Shown: positions 49,701 through 52,700 of the stretch, piece after piece
How positions within the stretch are numbered: position 1 is the first letter of the stretch
How the letters are laid out: every line of letters starts with the position of its first letter
Source of the DNA: Escherichia coli
GTDB taxonomy: Bacteria; Pseudomonadota; Gammaproteobacteria; Enterobacterales; Enterobacteriaceae
Length of the DNA: 64,000 nucleotides
Assembly: GCF_003018115.1 (NCBI RefSeq)
Contig: NZ_CP027457.1
Strand: one strand, 5' to 3'
Position numbers: made by a program

Positions 49701-52700
49701 TGAACTGCTTCACCATATACCTGAACAACTGAGTAAACGGGAGAGGTATTCTGAAAAATGGCAACGACGAACGCATTCTGTCTGGCGTCACCGCCACTGG
49801 TCCGCATCTGCCTTCACGGGGATTTACAACGATTTGGTCGCCGCATCAGTCTGTATGTGAACACGGCAGCGGAGGCCATCCGTGCCCTGTCGCTGCAGGT
49901 GCCGGGATTCCGCTGTCAGATGAACGAAGGCTGGTACCAGATACGTATTGCCGGTGAGGATACCGCGCCGGAGGTGGTGTATGCCCGTCTTCATGAACCG
50001 CTGAGCGGGAGGGCCGTGATTCATATTGTACCGAGGCTGGCAGGGGCCGGGGGAAATGGTGTTTTTCAGGTGGTGCTGGGGGCTGCAGCCATCGTGGGCT
50101 CTTTCTTCACCGCCGGTGCAACGATGGCGTTGTGGGGCGCAGCCCTGAGTGCCGGAGGGCTGACTGCCACCACGATGCTGTTCTCACTGGGTGCCAGCAT
50201 GATACTGGGTGGTGTGGCCCAGATGCTGGCCCCGAAGGCAAAGACGCCGGAATACAAAAGTACGGATAACGGTAAACAGAACACGTATTTTTCGTCACTG
50301 GACAACATGATTGCTCAGGGTAACCCGATGCCGGTGCCTTACGGTGAAATGCTGGTTGGTTCACGACGGATATCCCAGGACATCAGCACCCGTGATGAGG
50401 GCGGAGACGGGAAAGTGGTGGTTATCGGGCGGGGATAAAAATAAAAAAATCCCGCAGAGTTAGCGGAGCTGCGGGAGAGAACGATGAAGATTAACGTTAT
50501 GGAGTTATTTTTCAGGCATCAAAAATGTAACGCAGCGTCATTATTGCGGCTACAGGCAATTGCCGGAAATGTGAAGAGTTTCAGAAATTTTATTCCGTCA
50601 TGACACAGGCACCCTCCGGGGTGCCTGTTGTTTTCTGGCATAAACAGATTCAGACATCAGACAGGAGAGGGGGACAGAGTGGGTAAAGGGGGCGGCAAGG
50701 GGCACACACCGCGTGAGGCGAAGGACAATCTCAAATCCACGCAGATGATGAGCGTGATTGATGCCATTGGTGAGGGACCGGTGGAAGGTCCGGTGAAGGG
50801 ACTGCAGAGTATTCTGGTGAACAAAACCCCGCTGACGGACACGGACGGTAATCCCGTGATACACGGTGTGACCGCCGTCTGGCGTGCCGGGGAGCAGGAG
50901 CAGACACCACCTGAAGGCTTTGAGTCCTCCGGGGCGGAAACCGCACTGGGCGTGGAGGTGTCGAAGGCAAAGCCGGTGACGCGCACCATCACGTCAGCGA
51001 ACATTGACCGTCTGCGGGTCACCTTCGGGGTGCAGTCACTGGTGGAGACCACCTCAAAGGGTGACCGTAATCCCTCTTCTGTCCGGCTGCTGATTCAGCT
51101 TGAGCGTAATGGTAACTGGGTGACGGAGAAGGATGTCACCATTAACGGCAAGACCACCTCGCAGTACCTGACGTCGGTGATTCTGAATAATCTCCCTGAG
51201 CGCCCCTTTAACATCCGGGTGGTCAGGGTGACGGCGGACAGTACCACGGACCAGCTGCAGAACAGAACGCTGTGGTCGTCATACACCGAAATCATCGATG
51301 TGAAACAGTGCTACCCGAACACGGCCATTGTGGGGCTGCAGGTGGATGCGGAGCAGTTCGGTGGCCAGCAGATGGTGGTGAACTACCATATCCGCGGCCG
51401 CATCATTCAGGTGCCGTCAAACTATGACCCGGAAAAACGCACCTACAGCGGTATCTGGGACGGGAGTCTGAAACCGGCATACAGCAATAACCCGGCCTGG
51501 TGCCTGTGGGACATGCTGACTCACCCGCGCTACGGGATGGGAAAACGCCTGGGGGCCGCGGATGTGGACAAGTGGGCGCTGTATGCCATCGGGCAGTACT
51601 GCGACCAGACGGTCCCGGATGGTTTCGGGGGCACAGAGCCGCGGATGACCTTTAATGCGTACCTGTCACAGCAGCGTAAGGTGTGGGATGTCCTGGGGGA
51701 TTTCTGCTCGGCGATGCGCTGTATGCCGGTATGGAACGGTCAGACGCTGACGTTCGTTCAGGACCGTCCGTCGGATGTGGTGTGGCCGTACACGAACAGC
51801 GATGTGGTGGTGGATGATAACGGCGTGGGGTTCCGCTACAGCTTCAGTGCCCTGAAGGACCGGCACACGGCGGTGGAGGTGAATTACACCGACCCGCAGA
51901 ACGGCTGGCAGACTTCCACGGAACTGGTGGAAGACCCGGATGCCATCCTGCGCTACGGGCGCAACCTGCTGAAGATGGATGCGTTCGGCTGTACCAGCCG
52001 CGGTCAGGCCCACCGTGCCGGACTGTGGGTGATAAAGACAGAACTGCTGGAAACGCAGACGGTGGATTTCACGCTCGGGTCTCAGGGGCTGCGGCACACA
52101 CCCGGTGACATCATTGAAATCTGTGATAACGACTATGCCGGGACCCTGACCGGCGGACGCATCCTGTCCATCGATGCCGCCAGCCGCACACTGACGCTGG
52201 ACCGTGAGGTGACACTGCCGGAAGCAGGTACATCGACGGTGAACCTGATTAACGGCCGTGGTAAGCCGGTGCGCGTGGACATCACTGCACACCCCGCCCC
52301 TGACCGGATACAGGTCAGCGTCCTGCCTGATGGCGTGGCGACATACGGTGTGTGGGGACTCTCCCTGTCGTCACTGCGTCGTCGCCTGTTCCGCTGTGTT
52401 TCCATCCGGGAAAACACGGACGGCACCTTTGCCATCACGGCGGTGCAGCACGTACCGGAAAAAGAAGCCATTGTGGATAACGGGGCCCGCTTTGAGCCGA
52501 TGTCCGGCTCACTGAACAGCGTCATCCCGCCGGCAGTGCAGCACCTCACGGTGGAGGTGAGTGCCTCAGACGGCCAGTATCTGGCGCTGGCGAAATGGGA
52601 CACGCCGCGGGTGGTGAAGGGCGTGCGTTTCAGTCTGCGCCTGACCAGCGGAAACGGTGAAAACAGCCGCCTGGTGACCAGCGCCATCACGGCGGACACG

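Follow-up and report, generated by a model that had tools for sequence, protein, structure and literature searches.

A probable Hfq-dependent small RNA gene of the EcOnc22/23/24 and PasB family, facing backward between prophage tail genes I and J

Introduction

Why should two neighbouring tail genes of a lambdoid prophage be separated by an island with terminator hairpins of opposite orientation at its two ends? We addressed this question for tail genes I and J in a 64,000-nucleotide (nt) stretch of Escherichia coli contig NZ_CP027457.1 (assembly GCF_003018115.1), hereafter called the window; coordinates are window positions unless another record is named. The stop codon of I (TAA) occupies 50436-50438 and the start codon of J (GTG) lies at 50679, confirming the 240-bp gap (50439-50678) that an earlier note, made from the sequence alone, had reported between the two genes. 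The product of J begins with MGKGGGKG, resembling the MGKGSSKG of lambda J. The earlier note proposed this gap as a candidate small RNA (sRNA) or antisense locus bounded by opposed terminators. Our analysis upholds the first half of that proposal and revises the second, since the right-hand terminator belongs to the leader of J. By sequence comparison, the locus is a gene already known, that of the EcOnc22/23/24 sRNA (reported in 2014), and belongs to the PasB family. It is very probably a self-contained gene inserted between I and J, a variant of PasB that would be transcribed leftward, antisense to the late operon.

Results

Identity with the EcOnc22/23/24 loci

The earlier note suggested a comparison with published sRNA catalogues of enterohaemorrhagic E. 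coli (EHEC), and this comparison yielded a close match. The window gap is identical at 238 of 240 positions to each of the I-J gaps in prophages Sp15, Sp14 and Sp11 of O157:H7 strain Sakai, and the two differences (50531 and 50526) fall at or just upstream of the sRNA 5' end. EcOnc22 (in Sp15, the Stx1 phage), EcOnc23 (Sp14) and EcOnc24 (Sp11) are listed as homologues (Tree et al. 2014, PMC4104026, Table S2) and were identified as peaks of Hfq binding by crosslinking and analysis of cDNA (CRAC; Tree et al. 2014, Mol Cell, PMC4104026). A northern blot with a shared probe, recorded on the EcOnc22 row, gave a band of ~85 nt that was scored as 'Destabilised' in the hfq mutant (PMC4104026).

Placed on the current Sakai record, each of the three EcOnc peaks falls within an I-J gap and is antisense to both tail genes. 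This placement includes a correction, as the EcOnc01 probe shows that the published coordinates are shifted by about +128 to +140 bp relative to the current record; the two Sakai genome versions presumably differ in length by 128 bp. The shift was checked directly at 1.94 Mb and by implication at 2.17-2.90 Mb (Table S2 against NC_002695.2). After correction, the EcOnc22 peak corresponds to about 50527-50467 of the window, while the uncorrected coordinates place it on the J-leader hairpin and not on the sRNA. The northern probe provides the strand: it begins with GGGAGAGAACGATGAAGATTAAC, and its first 23 nt match exactly both the plus strand at 50473-50495 and the Sakai gap. Since the probe carries plus-strand sequence, the sRNA lies on the minus strand.

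Homology to PasB of enteropathogenic E. coli

We also compared the gap with PasB, an sRNA of enteropathogenic E. coli (EPEC) encoded on the minus strand of E2348/69 at 1466343-1466261 (83 nt; probe AATCCCGCAGTGATCGCGGAGCT; Pearl Mizrahi et al. 2021, Sci Adv, PMC8550237, Table S6). The PasB interval sits between a tail assembly gene (end 1466255) and gpJ (start 1466496), and the whole 240-bp window gap aligns with this locus. Within the RNA body, 61 of 76 aligned nucleotides are identical to PasB (~80%), with 7 nt of indels, and the PasB probe differs from the window plus strand by 3 mismatches in 23.

On Hfq, PasB forms chimeras with many mRNAs, as determined by ligating and sequencing interacting RNAs (RIL-seq). 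It has 37 such interactions and ends in a U-tract of 7, and at least 98.7% of its chimeras contain it as the second RNA (PMC8550237). Its chimeric fragments numbered 258 in the activating condition versus 1820 in the non-activating one, and its level was strongly reduced in the hfq mutant compared with wild type (log2 -6.8 and -2.4, where we assume the sign to mean lower in the mutant; PMC8550237). The window also has a terminator with U7, the family criterion being a U-tract of at least 4; the second-RNA behaviour in chimeras is known for PasB alone. A seed just upstream of the terminator has been proposed for PasB (Zhu et al. 2026, 10.64898/2026.05.13.724894). Taken together, published work on near-identical or homologous loci elsewhere has shown that the RNA is made, that Hfq binds it and that its stability depends on Hfq.

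The two sets of names have been kept apart in these publications and are joined here. Table S6 of Pearl Mizrahi et al. 2021 (PMC8550237) gives no EHEC homologue for PasB, the preprint of Zhu et al. 2026 (10.64898/2026.05.13.724894) does not mention EcOnc, and a 2021 review lists EcOnc23 and EcOnc24 as the only other names of EcOnc22.

Anatomy of the sRNA gene

Conservation was assessed in a first set of 117 copies anchored on a conserved 23-mer (62 unique, with the invariance of the 23-mer in this set forced by the anchor), in a second set of 80 loci anchored independently on the J N-terminus, and in a profile search that gave 251 usable cassettes, 97 of them unique. RNAalifold found no consensus structure for 20 diverse sRNA bodies because divergent terminator types were misaligned; structure was assessed instead by folding each sequence and counting pairs directly. 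Read along the minus strand, the cassette consists of an upstream block, a spacer, a -10 box, an RNA body that varies at its 5' side and then enters a conserved core, and a terminator with a U-run.

Homology, the northern probe and the CRAC peak together place the sRNA gene, an EcOnc22/23/24 allele of the PasB family, on the minus strand from about 50533 to 50441. Its predicted 5' end is about 50533 judging by the position of the -10 box, the edge of the shifted CRAC peak lies at about 50527, and the PasB 5' end corresponds to 50518. At the other side, the gene runs past the U-tract to a 3' end at about 50441-50443. From the predicted start or the peak edge to the U-tract the RNA would measure 85-92 nt, compatible with the ~85-nt northern band.

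The intrinsic terminator of the sRNA (50476-50443, minus strand) was identified by terminator scan and folding. Its stem is formed by UCCCGCAG (50476-50469) and CUGCGGGA (50457-50450), which enclose an 11-nt loop and are followed by U7 (50449-50443). In plus-strand letters, TCCCGCAG (50450-50457) pairs with CTGCGGGA (50469-50476), and the A-run AAAAATAAAAAAA on the 5' side of the hairpin becomes the U7 after it on the minus strand. As the earlier note had read it, the left hairpin is a terminator for leftward transcription only, and the scan scored it on the minus strand alone. It has no U-run in the late direction and therefore should not stop late transcription. Between the end of the terminator and the stop codon of I there are 5 nt. 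The 97 unique cassettes retain both stem and U-run, and they include compensated variants of the stem (CCCACAG/CTGTGGG and CCCGTAA/TTACGGG). Across the 1.4 kb that were scanned, 4 terminator-like sites were observed versus 1.3 expected by chance.

Next to the terminator lies the conserved core, AACUCCAUAACGUUAAUCUUCAU (50506-50484, minus strand), a candidate seed delimited by column conservation among the 62 and the 97 unique variants. Predicted folds of the window RNA and of several other types leave part of this core unpaired. In most family members it contains CUCCUUA, the same seven nucleotides as the anti-Shine-Dalgarno end of 16S rRNA, a match that hints at ribosome-binding sites as the place of pairing. 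In the window allele CUCCAUA replaces CUCCUUA, and the targets of this allele may therefore differ.

Alignment of the cassettes places the -10 box, AATAAT, at 50545-50540 on the minus strand; other cassettes have TATAAT, CATAAT or TATCAT at this position. At the homologous site of E2348/69 the promoter scan reports TTCACA-16-TATAAT, an 11/12 match to the sigma-70 consensus. In the window no sigma-70 site rises above the scan threshold, in agreement with the failure of the earlier note to see a convincing promoter by eye. The window promoter is thus placed by homology to E2348/69 and by cassette conservation, not by the scan. The Sakai alleles that gave the northern band have the same -10 box and upstream block as the window.

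The upstream block, GGAATAAAATTTCTGAAACTCTTCACA (50596-50570, minus strand; about -37 to -63), is the most conserved part of the cassette, more so than the sRNA itself, and among the cassettes it reads AATAAAAnTTCTGAnnnTnTTCACATTT. It is composed of an A/T-rich, UP-like stretch and an inverted repeat similar to a CRP site, TCTGA-N6-TCACA. Of the 97 unique cassettes, 95 contain T[CG]TGA-N6-TCACA, and the spacing from TCTGA-N6-TCACA to the -10 box is 24 nt in 87 cassettes and 23 nt in 2, with an unrecognised -10 box in the other 8. Taken by itself, the motif is not above chance in the window (3 found, 2.1 expected). The centre of the CRP-like repeat is about 32.5 bp from the -10 box, at roughly -44.5; the usual class II position of CRP is 3 bp away from it. 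CRP represses Spot 42. PasB was higher in the condition in which Spot 42 was lower (PMC8550237). We treat a CRP site in the upstream block as a lead only. We also compared the block by eye with the consensus sequences of sigma-E, sigma-28, sigma-32 and sigma-54, and none of them fits.

Proposed mode of action

We propose that a promoter internal to the island, with its -10 box and upstream block as placed above, drives an RNA of about 85-92 nt that would end at the intrinsic terminator abutting the I stop codon. The RNA would then base-pair in trans through the core beside the terminator, probably over ribosome-binding sites.

Could the sRNA instead act mainly in cis? It might pair with the late tail mRNA, triggering its cleavage and uncoupling or lowering the expression of J, or the late mRNA might titrate the sRNA during lytic growth. 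The gene lies wholly within the late operon on the opposite strand, its RNA and the I-J spacer in the late mRNA are perfectly complementary, and every cassette that we found sits at an I-J junction in the same backward orientation. However, the RNA overlaps neither the I coding sequence nor the J ribosome-binding site, and more than 140 nt separate it from the latter. On Hfq, 37 partners in trans are recorded for PasB, and the sRNA was detected in lysogens, where little late mRNA would be expected. We therefore consider a mainly cis-acting role unlikely; it is compatible with action in trans.

Several points weigh against the proposal of a trans-acting sRNA made from this locus. Publications on EcOnc22-24 and PasB give neither a target nor a seed nor a phenotype, and a target motif of PasB is likewise unreported, so action in trans is only inferred. 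The 5' end is uncertain, as the available positions are estimates that range from 50518 to 50533. The -10 box of the window allele (AATAAT) is weak, no -35 box is recognisable and the promoter scan is empty. The text of the northern probe differs from the window beyond position 23, which may be an error in the text extracted from the PDF. Finally, the RNA and the evidence for its Hfq dependence come from alleles of other strains, Sakai and EPEC E2348/69.

The right hairpin and the J leader

The second terminator of the island lies outside the sRNA cassette, on the plus strand at 50605-50638, and was found by scan and folding. It has a 10-bp stem (50605-50628) with a UCCG loop and the tail TGTTTTCTGG. 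The scan scores it as a terminator on the plus strand only, bearing out the rightward direction given to it in the earlier note. It folds at -27 kcal/mol (z = -5.6), and none of 200 shuffled sequences folds as well. The hairpin is almost invariant among relatives, with one compensated change, from GCACC/GGTGC to GCATC/GATGC by way of a G-U intermediate. It occurs once per junction, even beside four cassettes.

Lambda offers a direct comparison. The earlier note held that J follows I directly in lambda, but a spacer of 60 bp separates them (I ends at 15444, J starts at 15505), and it holds a hairpin of its own, AAACCGCC-UGCG-GGCGGUUU, whose U-rich tail lies just ahead of the ribosome-binding site of J. 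Because there is one hairpin per junction and lambda has a hairpin at the same position, we assign the right hairpin to the J leader and not to the sRNA gene. The opposed orientation of the two terminators is thereby accounted for, as one ends a backward sRNA and the other is a separate hairpin of the J leader. The right hairpin would be an older feature of that leader. In lambda, RNA polymerase modified by the antiterminator Q passes terminators, and Q-modified polymerase would read through this one.

The right hairpin might instead end a discrete rightward RNA, for example a product of the I message's 3' end or an RNA with a 39-residue open reading frame (ORF), so that the island would produce a sense and antisense pair. 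The earlier note had envisaged transcription of the ~130 bp between the hairpins on both strands. The strong plus-strand hairpin with its T-run (50605-50638) and its one compensated change agree with such an RNA. Yet the evidence for transcription is confined to the minus strand, where the internal promoter is placed; the scan found no plus-strand promoter, and Table S2 of Tree et al. (PMC4104026) contains no Hfq peak in the late sense for this gap. In addition, the hairpin is present once per junction whatever the number of cassettes, and lambda, which has no cassette, has a hairpin at the same position. A discrete rightward RNA is accordingly improbable.

Just upstream of the J ribosome-binding site, a 7-bp repeat, TCAGACA, is present in two copies on the plus strand (50650-50663). 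In relatives the number of copies varies from 2 to 5 in the alignment (for example in L054, L012 and L070).

The 39-aa reading frame

The ORF of 39 amino acids (aa) occupies 50484-50603 on the plus strand, with GGGAGAGA upstream. The earlier note had called it doubtful, and we judge it not to be a gene. Were it translated, it could be an extra prophage gene or a type I toxin with the minus-strand RNA as its antitoxin, and there are features that invite this view: its ATG has GGGAGAG upstream, a start of MKIN recurs in many variants, and the frame overlaps the antisense RNA. Nevertheless, its length among the 62 unique variants is 10, 15, 16, 17, 22, 29, 31, 39, 41 or 54 aa, an ATG is missing from 10 of the 62, the peptide varies in its middle, and the frame is interrupted by frameshifts within alleles that are >95% identical. 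By inspection the peptide has no long hydrophobic stretch, and the conserved stretch of DNA with which the frame begins coincides with the sRNA core of the opposite strand. Both a protein-coding gene and a type I toxin-antitoxin pair were thus rejected, as neither length, start codon nor sequence is conserved, and we regard either as very improbable. A hypothetical protein annotated at this locus in KF030445 is a different ORF that overlaps the end of I.

Distribution and annotation

A BLAST search located the island in 806 of the 5426 complete E. coli genomes, at a median of 3 copies per genome. About 15% of these genomes thus carry the PasB/EcOnc22-24 family, frequently as multiple copies. 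The island is also found in 149 phage records, mostly of Stx-converting phages, including VT1-Sakai.

At this I-J locus, the RefSeq annotation comprises the two flanking tail genes only. The earlier note had suggested a search of Rfam, and it returned nothing for the island: searched permissively with Rfam 15 (E up to 10), the region 49500-51500 gave only chance-level matches and none to the island, and at the gathering score the island is without a match in a search of the whole window. Elsewhere in the window, five gathering-score matches were obtained, namely MicL at 3543-3850 (plus strand), ES036/CssrF at 7786-7828 (minus), isrK at 19678-19754 (plus), C4 antisense RNA at 19779-19866 (plus) and STnc100 at 27471-27684 (plus). 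MicL is a marker of the chromosomal cutC region; isrK, C4 antisense RNA and STnc100 are prophage-associated sRNAs.

Scanning species-representative genomes gave matches in Escherichia albertii and in three small contigs from unrelated genera. These contigs, of 460-3408 bp, are assigned to Asaia platycodi (L209), Parendozoicomonas haliclonae (L210) and Streptomyces flavalbus (L212). The Parendozoicomonas contig (98%) and the Streptomyces contig (86-93%) match the E. coli prophage tail region over nearly their full length; the Asaia contig matches E. coli prophage over 68 bp only, at 90%. All three are probably contaminations of those assemblies, and the taxonomic range of the sRNA cassette is Escherichia.

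Tandem cassettes at I-J junctions

In related prophages, I-J junctions hold two, three or four cassettes in tandem with a period of about 220 bp, and every cassette has a conserved promoter block of its own, a body that has diverged, and a terminator. One cassette is present in 177 loci, two in 11, three in 3 and four in 13 (arrays are seen in L131:591-1418, on the minus strand of that locus, in L027, L049, L053, L054, L068 and L095, and further in L101, L105, L107, L132, L133 and L137). All cassettes found lie backward at an I-J junction.

Four-cassette arrays are present in 78 of the 5426 complete E. coli genomes, for example at 2656877-2657817 of NZ_CP031906.1 in FWSEC0008, and a flanking tail assembly gene is the only feature annotated there. 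The 78 include the strain that matches the window at 100%, in which the array lies in a different prophage. Among the sequenced phage records of INPHARED we found no four-cassette array. The minimum distance between copies of pasB has been given as 28 kb (Zhu, Shabalina and Storz 2026, bioRxiv 10.64898/2026.05.13.724894), which indicates that the arrays went unseen in that survey, probably since its BLAST search kept close PasB variants only.

Some prophages with a closely related J have a junction of another kind, in which a backward-facing ORF starting with MKCKIIAAIAMLTAASCG takes the place of the sRNA cassette. The start resembles a lipoprotein signal peptide, and the gap there is 290 bp by a heuristic estimate. 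This ORF is found upstream of the J start (position 1501 of each locus) in L147, L150-L153, L164, L173, L178, L190 and L203.

The mosaic nature of lambdoid tail regions and the variable number of cassettes might make the island look like a neutral spacer or the scar of a recombination event, with its RNA as transcriptional noise, but we give this hardly any credence: promoter block, core and terminator are conserved in the 97 unique cassettes while the linkers vary, the homologues have published Hfq binding, Hfq-dependent stability and many RIL-seq partners, and 806 genomes retain the island, frequently as multiple copies. This conservation runs counter to the scar without conservation that the earlier note had set against its own proposal.

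Discussion

The sRNA itself is not new, having been reported in 2014, with its EPEC relative following in 2021, neither with a published function. What the present analysis provides is a precise annotation for a locus that RefSeq and Rfam 15 leave blank, together with an explanation of its opposed terminators, one being that of a backward sRNA and the other part of the J leader. For finding the regulator and the targets of the family, handles are offered by the tandem arrays and by the highly conserved upstream block.

A wider model can be put forward tentatively, in which the gene would be one unit of a family not previously recognised as a family. The I-J junction may be a landing site for backward Hfq-dependent sRNA cassettes, accumulating in arrays of up to four under one conserved operator, TCTGA-N6-TCACA, with diversified seeds. 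Such a bank of sRNAs could be co-regulated, the operator may sense catabolites, and a role in cis is possible. The arrays and the conserved operator are observed; a putative regulator, co-regulation and the cis role are what we propose.

Comparison with known systems

The locus is most similar to EcOnc22/23/24, with which it shares a place in the I-J gap of a lambdoid prophage, an orientation antisense to the late operon and an intrinsic terminator. The hosts differ: the EcOnc genes are carried by O157:H7 Sakai, whereas the window matches an O91:H21 strain (100% identity to FWSEC0008).

PasB has the same I-J position and orientation, the same terminator stem, upstream promoter block and J-leader hairpin, and a similar core, AACUCC..UU.AUCUUCAU. 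Within this core, the window reads CUCCAUAACG in place of the CUCCUUCACA of PasB, and the targets of the two RNAs may therefore differ.

AgvB and AsxR, like EcOnc22/23/24, are short, prophage-encoded, Hfq-binding RNAs of EHEC, and all of them were described in one paper (PMC4104026). The earlier note had cited AgvB and AsxR as examples of sRNAs in late-region islands. In contrast to the I-J cassette, both are encoded at the PR' moron site downstream of Q and not in the tail region, measure 51-60 nt and have a common 3' region of 42 nt. We rejected identity with either, given this location and the lack of a match to Rfam RF02702 or RF02703 in the island or the window.

In lambda, the hairpin immediately upstream of the J ribosome-binding site is G+C-rich, is followed by a U-rich tail and occupies the position of the right hairpin of the window. 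The lambda spacer, however, is 60 bp long and has no sRNA cassette, whereas in the window a gene of ~165 bp is inserted between the I stop codon and the hairpin.

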